From positions 1 to 62,290 of the forward strand of contig JACQCQ010000006.1 in the NCBI GenBank assembly GCA_016201505.1: a stretch of 62,290 bases of DNA, read 5' to 3'. This DNA comes from Candidatus Sungiibacteriota bacterium. GTDB lineage: Bacteria; Patescibacteriota; Minisyncoccia; Sungbacterales; JACQCQ01. Numbering within the stretch: the stretch's first letter is position 1; every line of letters starts with the position of its first letter. The notes beneath the pieces are model-generated. The model was not told the DNA's origin. It worked only from the letters and a program-made list of their open reading frames with translations, and did not search any database. The position numbers and the translations under genes are program-made. This document shows, in pieces, positions 829-59,693 of this stretch.

Positions 829-2853
829 ATGCCAAACAAATTCAAACTTGTAGCGCCGTATAAACCGACTGGCGATCAGCCTCAAGCCATTGAGGCGCTG
901 GTGCATTCGCTTGAATCCGGCGTAAGAGACCAGACGCTACTCGGCGTTACCGGCTCCGGCAAAACATTTACGATTGCGAACGTCATCGAACGCGTCCAAA
1001 AGCCAACACTCGTCATTTCACATAACAAGACACTCGCCGCCCAGCTCTATCAGGAGTTTAAAGAATTTTTTCCCGAAAATGCCGTTCATTATTTCGTTTC
1101 CTATTACGATTACTACCAGCCCGAGGCCTATATCCCGCGGTCCGATACCTATATCGAAAAAGACTCAAAGATCAACGACACGATTGACGCTCTGCGGCAC
1201 GCCTCCACCGCGGATTTGCTTTCGCGAAACGACGTCATCATCGTAGCCTCGGTTTCCTGCATCTACGGCATCGGCGACCCGGAGGAATACGAAAAAATGG
1301 CGCTTGATATTAAACTGGCGCAAAAACTTTCTTCCCGCGACCTCGCCCGGAAACTGGTTTTACTTCAATACGTCCGCAATCCGATTGATCCGCGCCAGGG
1401 CAACTTCCGACTGCGTGAAGACGCGGTTGAAATTCATCTGCCATCCGGCGCGGAAGTCGTTCTGGTTGAGTTCCGAAGAGCCAAAATTATCTCGATTAAA
1501 AAAAGAAAATCAGAGTTTAATTCTAATTTTTCAAACTTCAGCACGCTCCGTATCTTCCCGGCCAAACACTTTGTTACTCCAAGACACAAATTATTGCTGG
1601 CCATCGAGCGCATCAAAGATGAACTAAGAGAACAGATGGAGAAATTTAAAAAAGAAGGCAAGGTTTTGGAACTCGAGCGCATCAAACAGCGCACAACTTT
1701 CGATATCGAAATGTTAAAACAAACCGGCATCGTCTCGGGCATTGAGAACTATTCGCGCCACCTTTCATTTCGAGACGCAGGCGATCCGCCATATACCCTG
1801 CTTGATTACTTCGCCCGCGCGAGCCAACAAGGCGCACCCGCTGCACCAAAAAAATCCCTCCACTACGATACTCTAGAGTATCCTAGTGGCGTTGATTTCC
1901 TGACCGTCATTGATGAGTCACACGTTTCTCTGCCGCAAATTCGTGGCATGTATAACGGTGACCGCGCGCGAAAAACGACGCTGGTGGACTATGGCTTCAG
2001 GCTCCCCTCCGCGCTCGATAACCGACCGCTGAAATTTGATGAATTCAGACAAAAAACCGGCCAGACAATTTATGTCTCGGCGACGCCCGCCGCCTATGAG
2101 CAATCTGTTTCCGCGGGCCATCTTGCCGAGCAGGTCATCCGGCCGACTGGGCTTCTTGATCCGGAGCTTGAGGTCCGCCCCACAGAACATCAAATTCGCG
2201 ATTTGGTAAAAGAACTAGAAAAGAGAAAAGCCAAAAACGAACGTTCATTGGTCATCGCTCTCACCAAACGGCTCGCCGAAGATATCGCCCAATATTTAGC
2301 TGACGCGGGATTAAAGACAACCTATCTGCACTCGGAGGTAAAAACGCTCGAGCGGCCGGATATTTTAGCCGATCTGCGAAGAGGCGAATACGACGTTCTG
2401 GTTGGCATCAATTTACTCCGTGAGGGGCTTGATCTGCCCGAAGTCTCGTTTGTGGCCATTTTAGATGCCGACAAAGAAGGCTTTTTGCGCAATGATACGA
2501 CACTTTTACAGATTATCGGCCGCACCGCGCGCCATCCCGATGGGCGAGTAGTTTTGTATGCCGATAGAGTTACGGATTCGATGAAACGAGCCATCGGCGA
2601 AACCAACCGTCGGCGCAAAATTCAGGCGGCTTACAACCAGGAACACGGCATCACGCCCACCGGAATTGAAAAAGCCATTCGCGCCTCGCTGTCTGAAGAA
2701 GCGGCGAGAAGGGAAGAGGCGGAAATCAAACTCGAAGGTCAGGCCAAAAAAATGCGCGAGGCTCTAACCCGCGAAATGAAAAAAGCCGCCAAAGACATGA
2801 ACTTCGAATTGGCGGCGCGCATCCGGGATCGGATTAAGAAACTAGGGGGTTAG
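829..2853 (+). CDS. uvrB: excinuclease ABC subunit B
   Basis: 674 aa. N-terminus FKLVAPYKPTGDQPQAIEAL, Walker A GVTGSGKTFT, helicase motifs DESHVSLPQIRGMY and GINLLREGLDLPEVS, and a C-terminal UVR motif (FELAARIRDRIKKL). Confidence 0.97.
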   Translation: MPNKFKLVAPYKPTGDQPQAIEALVHSLESGVRDQTLLGVTGSGKTFTIANVIERVQKPTLVISHNKTLAAQLYQEFKEFFPENAVHYFVSYYDYYQPEAYIPRSDTYIEKDSKINDTIDALRHASTADLLSRNDVIIVASVSCIYGIGDPEEYEKMALDIKLAQKLSSRDLARKLVLLQYVRNPIDPRQGNFRLREDAVEIHLPSGAEVVLVEFRRAKIISIKKRKSEFNSNFSNFSTLRIFPAKHFVTPRHKLLLAIERIKDELREQMEKFKKEGKVLELERIKQRTTFDIEMLKQTGIVSGIENYSRHLSFRDAGDPPYTLLDYFARASQQGAPAAPKKSLHYDTLEYPSGVDFLTVIDESHVSLPQIRGMYNGDRARKTTLVDYGFRLPSALDNRPLKFDEFRQKTGQTIYVSATPAAYEQSVSAGHLAEQVIRPTGLLDPELEVRPTEHQIRDLVKELEKRKAKNERSLVIALTKRLAEDIAQYLADAGLKTTYLHSEVKTLERPDILADLRRGEYDVLVGINLLREGLDLPEVSFVAILDADKEGFLRNDTTLLQIIGRTARHPDGRVVLYADRVTDSMKRAIGETNRRRKIQAAYNQEHGITPTGIEKAIRASLSEEAARREEAEIKLEGQAKKMREALTREMKKAAKDMNFELAARIRDRIKKLGG

Positions 2854-6374: not shown

Positions 6375-6408
6375 GTCTCCATTCTACGCTATAGCGTAGA
6401 ATGGAGAC
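6375..6408. repeat. 34-nt perfect palindrome GTCTCCATTCTACGCTATAGCGTAGAATGGAGAC (core ACGCTATAGCGT) between convergent rpsT and paralog P1; probable bidirectional terminator or protein-binding site
   Basis: Perfect self-complementarity read from the sequence. The same 12-nt core recurs at 7011, 29950, 30563 and 56791. Confidence 0.85.
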
Positions 6409-6429
6409 AAACACCCACATAGCTCGGCA

Positions 6430-6999
6430 TTATTTTGGCATCATCCCGAAGTGTTTGTATACCCGATACTCCTGATGGCCGAGGGATTTGGTTCTTAATA
6501 CTGTGACGAATTCTCGAATACGAAACACTGAAGCGATGAAATCTACTTCGTCTTCACAGGGCGAAGGATGAACAAACACGCTTTTGTGGAATTGAAAACA
6601 TCCCAAGTCGCAGATCTTCCTGCGCAGAGCATCGCGAGCTGTTTTGTGTCGCTCGGGTATGTCAAAAAGGATAACGTTCCAATACCCATCCCAGGATTTA
6701 AATTTTGCCAATTCTAAGTTCTCAAACTCAAATTTTTTAAGACGCGTCTTCCCGGCCTCTGTAATAGCCAGAACTTCATGCCTATTTTTATCCATTCGTA
6801 TTTCAATCAGCCTTCGCCTGCGCAACCGTCGCAGAGCTTGCTCAAGAGAGCGTTTTTTCAACTGACGACTTTTTGAAATAAAAGGTTTTAAGGCGATAGC
6901 GAGTCCGGGAAGTGTCGCTGCGGCAACACCAAGAGCCCCGCCGGTGAGAGCAGCCAAGATTGATTTCACGACTGCGCCCTTTTCTGTATCCCCCTTCAT
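6430..6999 (-). CDS. wHTH + Cas2/PaaX-like domain protein with hydrophobic N-terminal segment (paralog P1 of 3)
   Basis: 189 aa. N-terminal hydrophobic stretch ILAALTGGALGVAAATLPGLAIALKP, a basic wHTH-like block (LEQALRRLRRRRLIEI...ITEAGKTRL), and WDGYWNVILFDIPERHKTARDALRRKICDLGCFQFHKSVFVHP. The last matches the W-x-x-V-x-FDIPE...R...L...G...Q/H-x-SVFV pattern of PaaX middle domains and Cas2. Confidence 0.85.
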   Translation of the reverse strand: MKGDTEKGAVVKSILAALTGGALGVAAATLPGLAIALKPFISKSRQLKKRSLEQALRRLRRRRLIEIRMDKNRHEVLAITEAGKTRLKKFEFENLELAKFKSWDGYWNVILFDIPERHKTARDALRRKICDLGCFQFHKSVFVHPSPCEDEVDFIASVFRIREFVTVLRTKSLGHQEYRVYKHFGMMPK

Positions 7000-7007
7000 G
7001 TCTCTAT

Positions 7008-7025
7008 ATTACGCTATAGCGTAAT
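7008..7025. promoter_or_regulatory. 18-nt perfect palindrome ATTACGCTATAGCGTAAT overlapping the -10-like TAATAT of P1; candidate operator
   Basis: The minus strand reads ACGCTATAGCGTAATATagagacATG. The hexamer TAATAT (7006-7011) is 6 nt from the ATG at 6999. Confidence 0.55.
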
Positions 7026-15921: not shown

Positions 15922-15972
15922 AGCCAAAGCTAGCCCATCCGGCGCACCATCGCGCAAAATAGTACCTATAAA

Positions 15973-15989
15973 ACACGATCGTGTATGAT
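15973..15989. promoter_or_regulatory. 12-nt palindrome ACACGATCGTGT abutting the -10-like TATGAT of paralog P2; candidate operator
   Basis: ACACGATCGTGTATGATagatacATG. Palindrome at 15973-15984, TATGAT at 15984-15989, then 6 nt to ATG 15996. Confidence 0.5.
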
Positions 15990-15995
15990 AGATAC

Positions 15996-16603: not shown

Positions 16604-16633
16604 CCCTATTTACCACGATCGTGGTAAATAGGG
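16604..16633. repeat. 30-nt perfect palindrome CCCTATTTACCACGATCGTGGTAAATAGGG downstream of P2
   Basis: Perfect self-complementarity. Its core CACGATCGTG matches the palindrome upstream of the same gene. Confidence 0.85.
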
Positions 16634-20533: not shown

Positions 20534-20539
20534 ATAAAA

Positions 20540-20577
20540 GAGACCCTCCGACGTTACGTCGGAGGGTCTCTTTTTAG
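20540..20577 (+). terminator. intrinsic terminator
   Basis: GAGACCCTCCGACG-tta-CGTCGGAGGGTCTC followed by TTTTT. Confidence 0.85.
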
Positions 20578-29899: not shown

Positions 29900-29949
29900 T
29901 GAATCTAGTTATATTTATTACATCTAATTTATTAGTTCTACTCTATCCC

Positions 29950-29966
29950 ACGCTATAGCGTATAAT
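29950..29966. promoter_or_regulatory. palindrome ACGCTATAGCGT fused to a consensus TATAAT upstream of paralog P3; candidate operator and promoter
   Basis: ctatcccACGCTATAGCGTATAATgatgtagATG. Palindrome at 29950-29961, TATAAT at 29961-29966, then 7 nt to ATG 29974. The 19 nt CTATCCCACGCTATAGCGT are identical to the left part of the palindrome at 56780-56813. Confidence 0.55.
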
Positions 29967-30551: not shown

Positions 30552-30585
30552 TACCCTATGCCACGCTATAGCGTGGCATAGGGTA
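30552..30585. repeat. 34-nt perfect palindrome TACCCTATGCCACGCTATAGCGTGGCATAGGGTA downstream of P3
   Basis: Perfect self-complementarity. Differs from the palindrome at 56780-56813 by a single compensated base pair. Confidence 0.85.
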
Positions 30586-37658: not shown

Positions 37659-37662
37659 GATT

Positions 37663-38119
37663 AGGAAATAGGCATTGGGTAATGGGGAATGGATAGGTAT
37701 GTCATAGACGATTGAGACTTGTTATTAAAGCATTCAGCATTTTCATTATGGAAGTTCTGCTCTGCGAGAACCTGTCAAAATTGGATGTATTCAATAGGCC
37801 AACGTTTTTGCTTACCAGCAATTGAGTTTCTAATTCTGCAGCTGAACCTCGAGCAATCCTTAAAAATTGATTGTACTCCTTAATATTTTTACGTGACCAT
37901 CCTTCAGCAATATTAGAAGCAATTGAAATCGCCGCCCGTCTAATTTGGCTCGTCAACCCATACACTTCAGATTTTGGATATAATTCTGTCATACGATATG
38001 TTTCAGTGGTCAGCTCAATTGACTTTTGCCACACCAGTAATTCTCGATACGAATTCATGTTCCATTCGCTGTTCCCCGTTTACCGTCCCTCATTTCCCAT
38101 TCGCTATCCCCCATTTCCT
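37663..38119. mobile_element. four-helix-bundle gene cassette bounded by imperfect inverted GGGAAT/AGGAAAT-word arms (IVS-like insertion)
   Basis: The left arm AGGAAATAGGCATTGGGTAATGGGGAATGGATAGG (37663-37697) pairs with the right arm whose reverse complement is AGGAAATGGGGGATAGCGAATGGGAAATGAGGG... (ending at 38119). The outer 7 nt are perfectly complementary. The first 12 nt are identical to the hairpin at 48681. Confidence 0.6.
37702..38058 (-). CDS. four-helix-bundle protein (23S rRNA intervening-sequence protein / Avd-like family)
   Basis: YRELLVWQKSIELTTETYRMTELYPKSEVYGLTSQIRRAAISIASNIAEGWSR...RIARGSAAELETQLLVS is the canonical TIGR02436-type sequence. Confidence 0.9.
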   Translation of the reverse strand: MNSYRELLVWQKSIELTTETYRMTELYPKSEVYGLTSQIRRAAISIASNIAEGWSRKNIKEYNQFLRIARGSAAELETQLLVSKNVGLLNTSNFDRFSQSRTSIMKMLNALITSLNRL

Positions 38120-45175: not shown

Positions 45176-47138
45176 ATTCGTTTTCTAAATATTCATCATC
45201 AAGATCATTATAATTTCCGGACATCGCAATGGCCGTCTCGGGCAGTTCACGCAAAAATCGCGAGGGAGGGTTGGCTTGCAACGCGCCAAACAGCATGCGG
45301 CGGCGGGCCCATAAAATATAGAGTTTTTCTTTGGCGCGGGTGATGCCCACATAGCAAAGCCGCCGCTCTTCCTCAAGCTCTCGCGGGTCAAGCATGGCTC
45401 TACCATGCGGGAAAATCCCCTCCTCCACCCCGATAATAAAAACCACGCGAAACTCAAGACCCTTGGCGGCGTGGAGTGTCAGGCAGTGCACCGCATGAGT
45501 ACCCCGATCGATGGCATCGGTCTCCTGAATTAAGGCGATATCCTCAAGCAGTTTTTGGTAGGCTTCTTCCGGCGGAAATTGATCATAACGCGCGGCGAGC
45601 GAAATAAATTCTTTGACGTTCTCCCAACGTTCCTCGGCGTTTCGCGATTCGTCTTCGAGATAGACCTCGTATTTTATTTTTTGAACCAGATGCAAAATAA
45701 ATTTGGAAGGCGTCAGGCTGGCCATCTCTTTTTTCAGTTCCTGCGTGAGCGACTCAAATTTTTGGTAGACTTCTTTTTCTTTAGGTGTCAGGGCATCTAT
45801 ATCGGATGCTAAAATTTTAAGCATCAGAATTTTGCCGATGCCGCGCGGCGGCGTATTCGCTATACGTTTTAGCGAGACCGTGTCCGCGGGGTTTTGCAGC
45901 ACGCGCAAGTAGCCAATGATATCTTTTACCTCGCGCCGCAGGTAGAATTTTGTTCCGCCGACGATGCGGTAAGGAATGTCGGCGCGCAAAAACATTTCTT
46001 CTACCACACGCGATTGGGCGTTGGTGCGATAGAGCACGGCAAAATCTTCATACTGATGTCCTTTGGTTCTTAACTCCGCAATTTTTTCCGCGATGAAGGC
46101 GGCTTCTTGGCGTTCATCCGACAGCGGGACGAGAACTATTTTTTCACCTGCGGGGTTTTCGGTCCATAATTTTTTTTCTTTTTGCAGGCTGTTTTGCGAA
46201 ATAATGCCGTGCGCCGCGTCGAGGATGGTTTGGGTTGAGCGGTAATTTTGATCGAGCACGATCACTTTCGCATCGGGCCAGTCTTTTTCGAATGAGAGAA
46301 TATTGGTGAAGTCCGCGCCGCGCCAAGAGTAAATCGATTGGGCATCATCGCCGATGGCAAAAATATTCCGATATTTAGCGGCCAGGAGTTTGATTAAAAT
46401 GTATTGCGCGTGATTTGTATCCTGATACTCGTCGATGTGAATGAATGGGTATTGGTCTTGATACTCTTCGAGCGTCTTGGGATCATTTTGAAAAAGTAAA
46501 ACCAGTTGCATTAAGAGATCATCAAAATCCATGCCGTTTGAAGATTTCAGTCGGGCTTGATATTCGCGATAAACGCGGGCGATTGTTTTGGCAAATGGGC
46601 CCGGTTCAATTTCATACCCCTCCGGCCCAATCAGCTGGTTCTTTAATGATGAAATGATGTTTTGAACCGTGCCGGCTGGGTATTGCTTGGTTGAAATATC
46701 AAGCGAGCTCATAACATCTTTAATCAGTGAGAGCGAATCATCCTCGTCAAATACTGAAAACCGCGCGAAAAAGCCTATCTTTTTCGCCTCCTGGCGTAAA
46801 ATTCTTAGGGCAAAGGAGTGAAATGTGCCGATGAATGGGAATTGGGTGATGGGCAATGGGGAATAGTCATTCGGTAGCGGAGCCCTATGGCCTATTTCCT
46901 TCTTCCCATTCCCTAGCAGCTGCTTAATTCGGCCCCGCATCTCATCGGCCGCCCTATTGGTGAAAGTAACAGCCAAAATATGCTGGGGTGAGACGCCTTT
47001 TTCAATCTGGTAGGCCACCCGGTGGGTCAGCGCCTTCGTTTTGCCTGATCCGGCGCCAGCAATGATTAAAACCGGCCCGTCGGGGGCGAGAACGGCTGCT
47101 TTTTGGCGCTCATTTAAGCCCTCAAGAATATGGTTCAC
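45162..47138 (-). CDS. pcrA: UvrD/PcrA-family ATP-dependent DNA helicase with a repeat-encoded insertion between motifs Ia and Ib
   Basis: GAGSGKTKALTHR (motif I), AVTFTNRAADEM (Ia), GTFHSFALRIL, DEYQDTN (II), YRSTQTIL, TLHAAKGLEF and VGITRAKEKL. Confidence 0.92.
   Translation of the reverse strand: MNHILEGLNERQKAAVLAPDGPVLIIAGAGSGKTKALTHRVAYQIEKGVSPQHILAVTFTNRAADEMRGRIKQLLGNGKKEIGHRAPLPNDYSPLPITQFPFIGTFHSFALRILRQEAKKIGFFARFSVFDEDDSLSLIKDVMSSLDISTKQYPAGTVQNIISSLKNQLIGPEGYEIEPGPFAKTIARVYREYQARLKSSNGMDFDDLLMQLVLLFQNDPKTLEEYQDQYPFIHIDEYQDTNHAQYILIKLLAAKYRNIFAIGDDAQSIYSWRGADFTNILSFEKDWPDAKVIVLDQNYRSTQTILDAAHGIISQNSLQKEKKLWTENPAGEKIVLVPLSDERQEAAFIAEKIAELRTKGHQYEDFAVLYRTNAQSRVVEEMFLRADIPYRIVGGTKFYLRREVKDIIGYLRVLQNPADTVSLKRIANTPPRGIGKILMLKILASDIDALTPKEKEVYQKFESLTQELKKEMASLTPSKFILHLVQKIKYEVYLEDESRNAEERWENVKEFISLAARYDQFPPEEAYQKLLEDIALIQETDAIDRGTHAVHCLTLHAAKGLEFRVVFIIGVEEGIFPHGRAMLDPRELEEERRLCYVGITRAKEKLYILWARRRMLFGALQANPPSRFLRELPETAIAMSGNYNDLDDEYLENEYDNF
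46833..46911. repeat. GGGAAT-word palindromic element inserted in frame inside pcrA
   Basis: The terminal 9-nt arms GAATGGGAA (46833-46841) and TTCCCATTC (46903-46911) are perfectly complementary. It shares GGCAATGGGGAATAG (46852-46866) and GCCTATTTCC (46890-46899) exactly with the intergenic hairpin at 48680-48770. It encodes roughly ...GNGKKEIGHRAPLPNDYSPLPITQFPF... Confidence 0.65.
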
Positions 47139-47623: not shown

Positions 47624-48682
47624 ATGAAGTCACCGATTTTAAGACCAGCCTCGGCTGGGATTCTGCTTGTATTGATACTCATCGGCGCTTTAGCAGTTCG
47701 AGCGGACGCAGCGCAGGCCGGGTTTATCTCGGAGCTGATTAAGTTTTTTACCAATGCCGCCGCGACACCAGCCGGCAAAGCCGATTTTATTAATGAAACA
47801 AAGGCCGCTTCGAATGCGGCACCCGTGCTTTATGCCATCCCCAATCCCGAAGCCGCGAAAATGAATCTAAGTCAATTACCCGATCTTGCCTTCATCCAAA
47901 ATGACTCGCTGGTCGCACCGGCCAATCCACTCGGCAGTATTCAAGATCAAGACAACGCCGGCCGCATTTTTGTCTATACCGTGAAACCGGGCGATACCCC
48001 CTCTGCCATCGCCAAATCATTTAGCATCAGCGTCAATACGATCCTGGTCGCCAACAACCTAAAAAATGCCTCGTCTATTAAGATCGGTGACCAATTGGTT
48101 ATTCTGCCAATCTCGGGGGTGACCTATGTCGTAAAAAAAGGAGATACGATCGAGTCGATTGCAAAAAAATATAATCAGACGGCTTCAGACATTCTCTCAT
48201 ATAATAATTTACCCATTGGGGGGACGTTGGATCCCGGCATAGAACTGATTATTCCGGATGGCGAATTGAACGTTGAAAGCCTGCCAAGCCCCGGTGCATC
48301 AGAGCGTTTTGCATCGCTGCCGAATTTGAAAGGTTATTTCATCCGGCCGATTGGAGGCGGCATTAAAACCCAGGGTATTCATGGAAACAATGGCGTGGAT
48401 TTGGCAAACTCCTGCGGTACGCCTATCATGGCGGCGGCCGATGGCGTGGTGCTACTTGCCAGGATAAATGGCTATAACAGTGGATTCGGAGACTATATTG
48501 TTATTGACCACGCCAACGGAACGCAGACGGTCTATGCGCATATTGGGAAAAGTATGGTCACACCGGGTGAGAATGTGACAGCGGGCCAGATCATTGCGCT
48601 TATCGGCAATACCGGTAACACCAAAGGCTCAACCGGCTGTCACGTGCATTTTGAAATTCACGGCGCGCGGAATCCATTTTAG
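47624..48682 (+). CDS. LysM-domain M23-family peptidoglycan metalloendopeptidase
   Basis: Start taken at MKSPILRP (signal peptide). Two LysM repeats (YTVKPGDTPSAIAKSF, YVVKKGDTIESIAKKY). M23 motifs HGNNGVDLA, DHANGTQTVYAH and HVHFEIH. Confidence 0.9.
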   Translation: MKSPILRPASAGILLVLILIGALAVRADAAQAGFISELIKFFTNAAATPAGKADFINETKAASNAAPVLYAIPNPEAAKMNLSQLPDLAFIQNDSLVAPANPLGSIQDQDNAGRIFVYTVKPGDTPSAIAKSFSISVNTILVANNLKNASSIKIGDQLVILPISGVTYVVKKGDTIESIAKKYNQTASDILSYNNLPIGGTLDPGIELIIPDGELNVESLPSPGASERFASLPNLKGYFIRPIGGGIKTQGIHGNNGVDLANSCGTPIMAAADGVVLLARINGYNSGFGDYIVIDHANGTQTVYAHIGKSMVTPGENVTAGQIIALIGNTGNTKGSTGCHVHFEIHGARNPF

Positions 48683-48770
48683 GAAATAGGCAATGGGGAA
48701 TAGGGAATAGGGAATGGGAAACAAATCCAGCGATCACTTTTCTCCCTATTGCCTATTTCCTATTGCCTAT
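48680..48770. repeat. empty GGGAAT/AGGAAATAGG-word hairpin between the convergent M23 peptidase and comM genes (overlaps both stop codons)
   Basis: GGAAATAGGCAAT (48682-48694) is perfectly complementary to ATTGCCTATTTCC (48748-48760). The left arm continues as GGGGAATAGGGAATAGGGAATGGGAA. It probably acts as a bidirectional terminator. Confidence 0.75.
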
Positions 48771-55196: not shown

Positions 55197-55226
55197 ACCC
55201 TACGCGACGGCTTCGTCGCGTAGGGT
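55197..55226 (-). terminator. hairpin downstream of 55236..55601
   Basis: ACCCTACGCGACG-gctt-CGTCGCGTAGGGT, a 13-bp perfect stem with a weak T-run on the minus strand. Confidence 0.55.
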
Positions 55227-56779: not shown

Positions 56780-56813
56780 TACCCTATCCCACGCTATAGC
56801 GTGGGATAGGGTA
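56780..56813. repeat. 34-nt perfect palindrome TACCCTATCCCACGCTATAGCGTGGGATAGGGTA between the recombinase and the C39-like peptidase gene
   Basis: Perfect self-complementarity, from the same family as 30552-30585. Confidence 0.85.
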
Positions 56814-56854: not shown

Positions 56855-57505
56855 ATGAAAAGAATTGGCTGTTTCCTCGGTCTTTTTTTGTGGCTTTCTG
56901 CTCTTCCGGCGCTCGCTGTCCAGGAAGCCGACACCACCACAACGCACTTTTTCTCGCTTTCAGTTCCCTTCGTGGTGCAAGCGCCCTTTGGCGATTGGTC
57001 TTCACCCTGGCAAGATTTTTGCGAAGAAGCTTCAATCACCATGAGCTACTCATATCTCACCGGCAAGGTCCCGGACAAATATGAGTCGGCCCTCGTTATG
57101 TTACGGCTCGCCATTTTTGAGATGAAAACACTAGGCTACGACAAAGATACCGATGTGCGCGACACCGAACGCATGATGCACGAGTATTTTGGTTATATGA
57201 AAACGCTGATTCTCAAAAATCCATCCGTTGCTGACATTAAAAATGCACTCTTATCAGGAAATTTAGTATTGGCGCCCTTTGACGGACAACTGGTCGATAA
57301 TCCCTATTACGTCCCGCCGGGACCGCGGTATCACATGGTGGTTATTAAGGGCTACGACAATGATAATTTCATTGTGAATGATCCGGGCACGCGCCACGGC
57401 GAAGGATTCCGCTATCCGATTAATTCGTTTATGAACGCGATTCATGACTTGGTCACCGGCGATATTAGAGAGGGTCCAAAATCAGTTCTGGTCATAGAGA
57501 AATAG
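56855..57505 (+). CDS. secreted C39-like (peptidase_C39_2 / BtrH-like) cysteine peptidase-fold protein
   Basis: Signal peptide, then FFSLSVPFVVQAPFGDWSSPWQDFCEEASITMSYSYL (the VP-x-x-Q-x-P...W...C-E-E-A-S pattern), and later HMVVIKGYDNDNFIVNDPG. A -10-like TAAAAT (56843-56848) lies 6 nt upstream of the ATG. Confidence 0.65.
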   Translation: MKRIGCFLGLFLWLSALPALAVQEADTTTTHFFSLSVPFVVQAPFGDWSSPWQDFCEEASITMSYSYLTGKVPDKYESALVMLRLAIFEMKTLGYDKDTDVRDTERMMHEYFGYMKTLILKNPSVADIKNALLSGNLVLAPFDGQLVDNPYYVPPGPRYHMVVIKGYDNDNFIVNDPGTRHGEGFRYPINSFMNAIHDLVTGDIREGPKSVLVIEK

Positions 57506-57507
57506 GT

Positions 57508-57541
57508 CTACCGATAAGGTACTATAGTACCTTATCGGTAG
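57508..57541. repeat. 34-nt perfect palindrome CTACCGATAAGGTACTATAGTACCTTATCGGTAG downstream of the C39-like gene
   Basis: Perfect self-complementarity with the same central CTATAG as the ACGCTATAGCGT family. Confidence 0.85.
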
Positions 57542-59532: not shown

Positions 59533-59597
59533 CTCCGCCAGCCGGCTCCGCCAGCCGGCTCCGCCAGCCGGCTCCGCCAGCCGGCTCCGCCAGCCGG
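59533..59597. repeat. five perfect tandem copies of the 13-mer CTCCGCCAGCCGG
   Basis: Copies start at 59533, 59546, 59559, 59572 and 59585. The array begins 64 nt downstream of tRNA-Pro. Confidence 0.95.
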
Positions 59598-59693
59598 CGG
59601 ACTAGTGCCCCGACTGAAACTAGGATCGAGATTCTCGATTGGCTCTTCGACAAGGATCAATCACGGGATCTTAATCTTAGAAAGGAAAAATAC

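Follow-up and report, generated by a model that had tools for sequence, protein, structure and literature searches.

The DNA analysed in this study, hereafter the window, is a stretch of 62,290 nucleotides from Candidatus Sungiibacteriota bacterium (assembly GCA_016201505.1, contig JACQCQ010000006.1). It carries three related genes, designated P1, P2 and P3, each coding for a small protein with a winged helix of PadR/PaaX type followed by a PaaX-type, Cas2-like domain, and each lying between two palindromes that share the same core, one on the promoter side and one on the 3' side. Matching palindromes were also found on both sides of the gene in most of the 80 related loci, taken from species-representative genomes of Patescibacteria, that made up the comparative set (L numbers below). 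Several genomes of this set contained two to five paralogs each.

Three bracketed genes and their sites in the window

The 12-mer ACGCTATAGCGT was observed five times in the window, at 6386, 7011, 29950, 30563, and 56791, compared with 0.07 occurrences expected from dinucleotide shuffles. Four of the five copies bracket two paralogs, P1 and P2, whose proteins are 61% identical. No variants with 1 mismatch were present in the window, nothing beyond chance appeared with up to 3 mismatches, and the near-miss sites gave no indication of a dispersed regulon there. The third paralog, P3, surfaced in the protein search as the window-encoded protein P0015. Its core, CACGATCGTG, is not that of P1 and P2 and occurs just twice in the window, both times in the bracket of P3; upstream and downstream cores were matched in 3 of 3 window paralogs. 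The initial annotation, made from the sequence alone, had reported the five copies of the 12-mer with four at the ends of two paralogs, a TAATAT overlapping the upstream copy 6 nt from the ATG of P1, and a downstream copy at the centre of a 34-nt perfect palindrome. All of these were found again, and P1 and P2 are genuine paralogs; P3 and a second solo palindrome had been missed.

On the promoter side of P1, the sequence read in gene orientation is ATTACGCTATAGCGTAATATAGAGACATG. The upstream site of P2 consists of the 12-nt core and the left arm only, with the TATAAT box taking the place of the gene-proximal right arm. The order of core, TAnnnT hexamer (TAATAT, TATAAT, and TATGAT in P1, P2, and P3, respectively), 6–8 nt, and ATG was common to P1–P3 and to loci L006, L008, L009, L028, and L048, which puts the dyad centre approximately 17 nt upstream of the ATG. 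The site of more distant clades was located 30–90 nt upstream with a -10-like box between the site and the ATG. Shine-Dalgarno-like motifs preceded 4 of the 49 long open reading frames (ORFs) of the window, and many of the ORFs had a -10-like (TATAAT-like) hexamer 6–8 nt before the ATG, which suggests that mRNAs of this organism are mostly leaderless. Scanning for sigma-70 -35/-10 elements upstream of P1–P3 revealed no full promoter, because the -35 region is poor.

If transcribed, the 3' copies in the window would form hairpins of -20 to -28 kcal/mol with 4-nt loops (-25.7 kcal/mol for the P1 copy). A T-rich tail follows the P1 copy only, which passed a terminator-like scan; the 3' copies of P2 and P3 did not pass.

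The fifth copy of the 12-mer belongs to a solo palindrome located 32 nt past an xer-like recombinase gene. Over 39 nt, this palindrome shares 95% identity with the 3' copy of P2, the sole change being a G/C swap mirrored on both arms. The second solo palindrome has no cognate paralog in the window. Between the two lies a Peptidase_C39_2-like gene (56855..57505), flanked in this way by two PaaX-type solos with different arms, and a comparable layout was seen in L084; the palindromes flanking this gene may be terminators or regulated insulators. Positions of these features are given in Table 1.

Table 1 Genes, promoter elements and palindromes of the three brackets and the two solo sites
Feature	Position	Strand	Description
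P1 gene	6430..6999	minus	189 aa; winged helix ~3-93, PaaX_M 101-177, no PaaX_C
P1 promoter-side palindrome	7008..7025		ATTACGCTATAGCGTAAT; 18 nt; gene-proximal arm overlaps -10-like box
P1 -10-like TAATAT	7006..7011	minus	followed by 6 nt (AGAGAC) and the ATG at 6999; predicted leaderless promoter
P1 3'-side perfect palindrome	6375..6408		GTCTCCATTCTACGCTATAGCGTAGAATGGAGAC; 34 nt; between convergent P1 and rpsT
P2 gene	29974..30546	plus	190 aa
P2 promoter-side site	29937..29966		left arm CTCTATCCC; core ACGCTATAGCGT 29950-29961; TATAAT 29961-29966, 7 nt, ATG
P2 3'-side perfect palindrome	30552..30585		TACCCTATGCCACGCTATAGCGTGGCATAGGGTA; 34 nt; starts 5 nt past stop; without T tail
P3 gene	15996..16556	plus	third paralog; 186 aa; ~52% identical to P1
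P3 promoter-side imperfect palindrome	15962..15995		GTACCTATAAAACACGATCGTGTATGATAGATAC; ends at ATG; core CACGATCGTG 15974-15983; TATGAT 15984-15989, 6 nt, ATG
P3 3'-side perfect palindrome	16604..16633		CCCTATTTACCACGATCGTGGTAAATAGGG; 30 nt
Solo palindrome	56780..56813		TACCCTATCCCACGCTATAGCGTGGGATAGGGTA; 34 nt; fifth copy of the 12-mer; between xer-like recombinase and Peptidase_C39_2-like genes
Second solo palindrome	57508..57541		CTACCGATAAGGTACTATAGTACCTTATCGGTAG; centre AC-TATA-GT (CTACCGATAAGGTAC-TATA-GTACCTTATCGGTAG); 3 nt past stop of the C39_2-like gene

Domains, fold and distribution of the protein

In Pfam searches, the PaaX_M domain (PF20803) was matched by P1 (E 1.5e-19) and P2 (E 3.6e-21) with 70–75 bits, the cut-off being 24. 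The PaaX_C domain (PF08223) had no Pfam match, and the protein stops approximately 10 residues beyond PaaX_M. Several other models remained below threshold, including Pfam PadR (14.9 bits versus 27), the NCBIfam PaaX equivalog TIGR02277 (24–29 bits versus 264.55), and the Cas2 models TIGR01573 (13.3 bits versus 24.5) and PADLOC Cas2 (E 0.02). No nuclease or recombinase family exceeded the threshold in the profile searches, Y1_Tnp was not matched, and a PDB sequence search with the Cas2-like half gave no match. The profile of the family itself matched PadR only, and weakly. Matches in PADLOC and PHROGs were weak and non-significant (best E ~0.007), giving no sign of a phage or defence origin.

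An AlphaFold2 (AF2) model was built from 75 homologs, with a mean predicted local distance difference test (pLDDT) score of 77. It displayed a winged helix of the order H-S-H-H-S-S (helix 3-19, a short strand, helices 30-41 and 49-61, and a wing at 65-79), followed by a ferredoxin-like domain. In Foldseek comparison, the top PDB match was Escherichia coli PaaX (8A39; 180 columns), followed by PadR/LmrR proteins, and the N-terminal half gave template modelling (TM) scores of 0.53–0.60 on target against PadR/LmrR structures. These results, with the PaaX_M match, bear out the winged helix and PaaX/Cas2-type ferredoxin-like domain proposed in the initial annotation. The membrane tether proposed along with them is doubtful. 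Judged by the helix order in the AF2 model, the hydrophobic N-terminus corresponds to helices 1 and 2 of the winged helix; this region was of low confidence in both models (pLDDT about 45–65, with residues 20-45 weak), and its maximum Kyte-Doolittle hydropathy, KD(19), was 1.6–2.0, borderline for a membrane helix.

The Cas2-like domain showed the pattern FDIPE...ARDAL...SVFVHP..C..E.D with many invariant polar residues, D113, E116, R122, D123, S140, H144, C148, E151, and D153 being conserved; FDIPE, at the position of the catalytic Asp of Cas2, is invariant. FDIPE was also found in an ordinary three-domain PaaX-like protein, P0078, and this motif alone is therefore no argument for catalysis.

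The family comprised 821 clusters (50% identity) at E<=1e-30, consisting of two-domain proteins of approximately 185 aa. Judged from record titles, it is essentially confined to Patescibacteria, and one match was found among viral contigs (IMG/VR). Three loci, L011, L016, and L021, came from metagenome-assembled genomes (MAGs) labelled Deltaproteobacteria or Thermodesulfobacteriota; their proteins have 206–212 aa with longer N-termini, and they carry the same bracket (CTATAAA-GCGATCGC arms). These labels could be due to mis-binning or horizontal transfer.

The bracket across the family and the anatomy of its site

An exact word of at least 14 nt was shared between the upstream and downstream sides in 41 of 78 loci and in 6 of 390 mismatched locus pairs. 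Perfect palindromes (arm of at least 8) with the family centre were located within 150 nt of the ends of family genes in 44 of 46 cases, that is, 44 in approximately 24 kb of gene-end zones versus 2 in the approximately 400 kb flanking them; the 71 palindromes whose centres differed were evenly spread over the 3-kb flanks. It had been considered in the initial annotation that the palindromes might mark most gene ends irrespective of the neighbouring gene; with 44 of 46 at family genes, the core-type palindromes are not generic terminators. All fetched DNA was also scanned in an unbiased way for pairs of palindromes that had an identical central 12-mer and were spaced 250–1600 nt apart; each of the 16 pairs detected enclosed either a family gene (14) or a TrpR-like gene (2). 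The loci had no conserved neighbouring gene family, the neighbours being unrelated housekeeping genes, and none of the 80 was syntenic with the window. A short distance between the 3' palindrome and the stop codon of its own gene was kept, while the distance to the next gene varied.

TrpR/YerC-like genes, coding for 135–141 aa, were observed in L082 (10939-11425) and L088 (1123-1620). Each has a short TCTAGA-core palindrome against the ATG and a 42–48-nt perfect palindrome past the stop, indicating that the bracket design is not limited to the PaaX-like family. A near-identical version of a palindrome located inside uvrB of the window flanks a TrpR-like gene in relatives. In uvrB (829..2853, plus strand), a 27-aa in-frame insertion contains the imperfect palindrome CCACTACGATACTCTAGAGTATCCTAGTGG at 1860-1889; the insertion is absent from all solved UvrB structures. 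As an in-frame palindromic insertion, it resembles the Rickettsia palindromic elements, which insert into ORFs.

The centre of the site was always C-[G/T][A/G]T[A/C]-G, and the next pair was usually G-C, giving a usual 8-nt centre of GC-[G/T]AT[A/C]-GC or NCGATCGN. The forms with the G-C pair were GCTATAGC, GCGATCGC, ACGATCGT, GCGATAGC, and GCGGTCGC. In 230 half-sites, the closing C was present in 100% and the next G in 79%. The four central bases were GATC, TATA, TATC, GATA, or GGTC; their two sides varied independently and their orientation was unbiased (GATA vs TATC, p=0.24 and 0.66), so that an oriented RNA loop was rejected as the recognised feature. Where the centre is asymmetric, the upstream and downstream copies were direct or inverted relative to each other. 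No correlation was found between the type of centre (loop) and the protein clade or recognition helix.

The arms behaved differently from the centre and followed the protein clade. In pairs of proteins with 60% identity or more, the identity at arm positions s6-s11 (8–13 bp from the dyad) was 57–80%, compared with 35–44% at s3-s5 and 34–49% beyond s12. A second CTAT motif was enriched 9–10 nt from the central one (29 of 182 half-sites). A universal centre combined with clade-following arms is the pattern expected of a dimer or oligomer reading a half-site one helical turn away.

Pairing between the arms was itself conserved. In 96 aligned sites, 91% of arm cells paired, a value inflated because sites were picked partly for Watson-Crick complementarity, compared with 50% in shuffles and 28–41% with a slid partner. 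The arm covariation score was 0.96 versus 0.21 and was reached by none of 500 shuffles, and 65 of the 174 differences between upstream and downstream copies were compensated in both copies. G-T (G-U) type arm cells were rare (~3%), site selection having penalised them. The sites thus appear constrained in self-complementarity itself (hairpin, cruciform or hairpin-templated correction), atop the sequence-specific positions.

Apparent cassette behaviour and interpretation of the bracket

Duplication of the gene together with both palindromes was evident at L008 and L009, which are paralogs on different contigs of one MAG with 78% DNA identity. Their homology extends from -39 to +42, exactly to the outer palindrome edges, and the flanks are unrelated. 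Homology between L011 and L016, from different genomes, is likewise limited at the palindrome edges, and in other pairs (L010/L020 and L042/L051) a synteny or rearrangement breakpoint was located at the outer edge of the upstream palindrome. A relative, L105, keeps the gene order polA-mutM-holA-rpsT-uvrB and has no family gene between holA and rpsT; its 97-nt holA-rpsT spacer contains one perfect 28-nt palindrome, TTTATATTGCGCTATAGCGCAATATAAA, which, aligned by hand, agrees with the upstream site of P1 in 20 of 24 positions. The view of gene and palindromes as a duplicating module, offered in the initial annotation as an alternative, is upheld by the L008/L009 homology limits and by this solo in the P1 slot of a collinear relative.

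The region 45.9–59.3 kb of the window is collinear with several Sungbacteria contigs, and the slot between the xer-like and C39_2-like genes is variable. A solo palindrome occupies it in the window, other solo palindromes in three relatives, a TrpR-like gene between TCTAGA-core palindromes in two relatives, and unrelated genes in one lineage. Possible origins of the alternation between palindrome-gene-palindrome and a solo palindrome are integration of a circle at a solo site and deletion between two copies.

Solo copies numbered 2 in the window and 2 in the approximately 400 kb of 3-kb flanks of the 80 loci. Approximately 195 kb of Sungbacteria-type sequence contained about 8 solos and about 9 bracket copies, all solos being intergenic and at gene 3' ends. 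A 36-nt palindrome, TGCTATTATAATACGCGATAGCGTATTATAATAGCA, was 100% identical in L107 (9876-9911), where it is upstream of a family gene, and L109 (9354-9389), where it is solo; the family genes of the two are 76% identical in nucleotide sequence. In L109, an IS200-like Y1_Tnp gene is located 1.3 kb from the family gene.

Taken together, these patterns are best explained by a palindrome-binding protein that represses its own gene and whose site closes that gene as well, with the whole unit turning over as a cassette, a reading to which we assign a probability of about 0.5. We infer that a dimer or higher oligomer of the protein most likely binds to the palindrome at both ends of the protein's own gene. 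Since the promoter-side copy is directly against or over the -10 box of a predicted leaderless promoter, binding there would shut off transcription of the gene; the bound protein would occlude RNA polymerase, by analogy to PaaX, which represses its own promoter Px by blocking RNA polymerase (PMC9493321). The 3' copy is the complete, perfectly self-complementary version and would form a 13–15 bp hairpin in the transcript; its probable functions are those of a terminator or insulator and of an additional operator with high affinity. Gene, promoter-operator and 3' site together make up a closed unit and hence behave like a cassette, which has been copied to other locations with the breakpoints falling on the outer edges of the palindromes. 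Gain and loss of the cassette seem to proceed by way of the palindrome, with solo copies left behind or used. Solo sites away from the gene may be protein-controlled terminators or roadblocks, or landing pads. Of the membrane-tethered autoregulator of the initial annotation, the autoregulator with its own site at both gene ends fits the comparative data, and the tether is the part that does not stand well.

Several observations weigh against this explanation. A PaaX-type palindrome is estimated to occur by chance at ~8% of intergenic junctions in these genomes, so that the empty site of L105 is suggestive only. Some orthologs are fully syntenic (L010/L037), showing that the modules are not highly mobile, and solos were found in the Sungbacteria relatives at 3' ends of unrelated genes, so that the sites may also have a function away from the protein's own gene. 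As regards the proposed roles of the 3' copy, a T tail is present on the P1 copy alone, and helical phasing of the upstream and downstream sites, as for DNA looping, was weak and depended on the chosen period. The conserved polar residues of the Cas2-like domain hint at more than dimerisation. The inflation of the pairing value given above also counts here. In view of the syntenic orthologs, the old paralogs, the chance expectation for a palindrome, and the absence of target-site duplications at the modules, module turnover is judged to be slow.

An active mobile element is the strongest of the other explanations, and we consider it possible but doubtful. The winged-helix/Cas2-like protein would itself recognise the terminal hairpins, its Cas2-like domain would nick or cut them or direct recombination there, the palindrome-gene-palindrome unit would be autonomous, and solos would be footprints, landing sites or non-autonomous derivatives; the whole would be a functional analogue, on a different protein, of repetitive extragenic palindrome (REP) elements with their REP-associated tyrosine transposases (RAYT) or of the IS200/IS605 hairpin elements. 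A duplication unit ending at palindrome edges, breakpoints at such edges in L010/L020 and L042/L051, the solo in the syntenic P1 slot of L105, the 36-nt palindrome shared by two genomes, the related palindrome type in frame within uvrB, the several paralogs per small genome, and the invariant FDIPE position with its conserved H, C, E, and D residues are all consistent with it. However, the paralogs are old (50–61% amino-acid identity) and some orthologs syntenic, no target-site duplications were found at the modules, the solos in the sequence surveyed are few rather than hundreds, FDIPE is shared with the three-domain P0078, the family is nearly absent from viral contigs, and no nuclease or recombinase family reached the threshold. 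It is a tentative proposal that the candidate phyla radiation harbours an unrecognised self-contained element whose protein reads hairpin palindromes with a universal GC-KATM-GC tip at the two ends of its gene and also helps to excise, integrate and copy the unit by nicking or directing recombination. Solos would then be landing pads or scars, and parallel systems would exist on other small DNA-binding proteins, such as the TrpR-like modules with TCTAGA-core palindromes.

It is improbable, in our judgement, that the palindromes are core sites of a host tyrosine recombinase such as the Xer-like enzyme, with modules that move in the manner of Acinetobacter pdif modules or integron cassettes, for which the encoded protein would be just a regulator or accessory factor. 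The architecture of inverted arms around a 4–6 bp centre does resemble lox/dif-type core sites, one solo lies close to the xer-like gene, the position following xer is occupied by differing modules or palindromes in genomes that are collinear in other respects, and palindrome-gene-palindrome versus a single palindrome is the product expected of conservative site-specific integration and excision. But the xer-adjacent palindromes are wholly different among relatives with 69–78% identical Xer and are therefore not a conserved dif site, and an Xer/dif site was rejected as a candidate on this ground. In addition, the arms differ between paralogs of one genome and track the clade of the family protein, not Xer, and asymmetric centres were found direct as well as inverted relative to each other.

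Control at the RNA level is somewhat less probable still. Here the protein would bind or cleave a hairpin in its own transcript, with the winged helix reading the stem-loop, the Cas2/VapD-like domain acting as an RNase, and the conserved GC-KAUM-GC tip as the RNA ligand. Cas2 and VapD are reported RNases, the 3' palindromes fold stably with 4-nt loops, the tip is conserved over variable, compensated stems, and a Roquin ROQ-RNA complex was among the weak structural matches. Nevertheless, the upstream copies of these predicted leaderless genes precede or overlap the -10 box and are probably not in the mRNA; the loop has no strand bias, G-U pairs are few even allowing for the selection against them, and the clade-following arm positions fit a duplex half-site.

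Generic terminators or REP-like hairpins merely near genes and with no link to the protein were largely rejected by the position statistics and the paired-palindrome scan and are very improbable: other long perfect palindromes at gene ends in the window and relatives, the P1 copy passing the terminator-like scan, and solos at 3' ends of unrelated genes speak for them, but the two cores of a paralog match each other while P3 has another core than P1/P2, the upstream copies occupy the promoter side, where the gene would have no use for a terminator, arms co-vary with the protein clade, and the P2 and P3 3' copies have no T tails.

The protein shares with PaaX the N-terminal winged helix and the central Cas2-like domain, and its best structural match is PaaX, but it lacks the PaaX_C effector (phenylacetyl-CoA) domain and has ~185 aa compared with ~305 aa; no paa genes are near P1–P3, whose neighbours are unrelated housekeeping genes. 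The PaaX operator consensus is TGATTC-N27-GAATCA (PMC9493321), different from the compact, hairpin-capable, GC-KATM-GC-centred palindrome present here at both gene ends. The protein can be described as a truncated PaaX relative, probably most like a PadR/PaaX-type autorepressor. PadR and LmrR are small dimeric winged-helix autorepressors acting on inverted repeats at their own promoters, and they dimerise by a C-terminal helix, in place of which a Cas2-like ferredoxin domain is found here. We know of no second operator after the gene in PadR. With Cas2 and VapD, the protein has in common the ferredoxin-like domain and the FD(I/M)P...SVF motif pattern of Cas2, here fused to a winged helix; neither cas1 nor a CRISPR array was found in the 62 kb.

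REPtrons (REP with RAYT) and IS200/IS605 elements also have a gene flanked by cognate hairpin palindromes, solos elsewhere, and several specificity classes per genome. The family differs in that its protein is a winged helix with PaaX_M and not an HUH/Y1 transposase, its solos are few in the sequence surveyed, its upstream palindrome doubles as a promoter-operator, and no conserved guide tetranucleotide or cleavage site was identified. Xer pdif modules and integron cassettes are similar in being small single-gene units bounded by recombination-type sites, with site-gene-site or a single site per slot; here the cargo is always the same DNA-binding family, the arms track the protein, xer-adjacent sites are not conserved, and neither an integrase nor an attI platform is present. 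Regulated genes with an additional cognate site downstream or alongside are known from lac O2, gal OI, Tus-Ter and RTP-Ter, the tus and rtp genes being autoregulated by the neighbouring Ter site. In the present family, the second site is a long perfect palindrome just past the stop codon, family-wide, and there was no evidence of looping or fork arrest.

Full-text literature searches found no description of this family or arrangement, and a two-ended palindrome bracket with a universal centre, clade-following arms and cassette-like behaviour was not found in the literature searched. Whether it deserves the name of a new kind of hairpin-based genetic element is a suggestion we make with little confidence. 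Activity of the Cas2-like domain on the hairpins, if confirmed, would define a new class of hairpin-based mobile element and a new context for the Cas2 fold. To our knowledge, regulation in bacteria of the candidate phyla radiation is almost unknown, with few recognisable regulators in the genomes. The results provide a large family with a precise predicted DNA target and a predicted promoter architecture in which the operator of a leaderless gene adjoins the -10 box, demonstrate an unusual two-ended arrangement of sites, and suggest cassette-like movement of small regulator genes, together with their hairpin sites, in very small genomes. Protein/site pairs ready for experiments are P1 and P2 with ACGCTATAGCGT and P3 with CACGATCGTG, and the arms offer a way to read specificity.

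Other features were observed in the window. Rfam detected 4 tRNAs and nothing else. Ordinary-looking hairpins are located at 20536-20574 and 55197-55226, the first with A/T-run flanks (AAAAGAGACCCTCCGACGT-A-ACGTCGGAGGGTCTCTTTT), indicating that canonical bidirectional terminators with unrelated centres also exist in this genome. G-rich repeats of the ATAGGGAAT type are present at 48679-48770, 37661-37690, and 46835-46864, those at 48.7 kb forming a long imperfect inverted repeat past a gene end; their CCCTAT/ATAGGG motif is also seen in the outer palindrome arms of P2 and P3. At 59533-59598, in the interval separating tRNA-Pro from the following ORF, a 13-nt unit, CTCCGCCAGCCGG, is repeated in tandem in approximately 5 copies.

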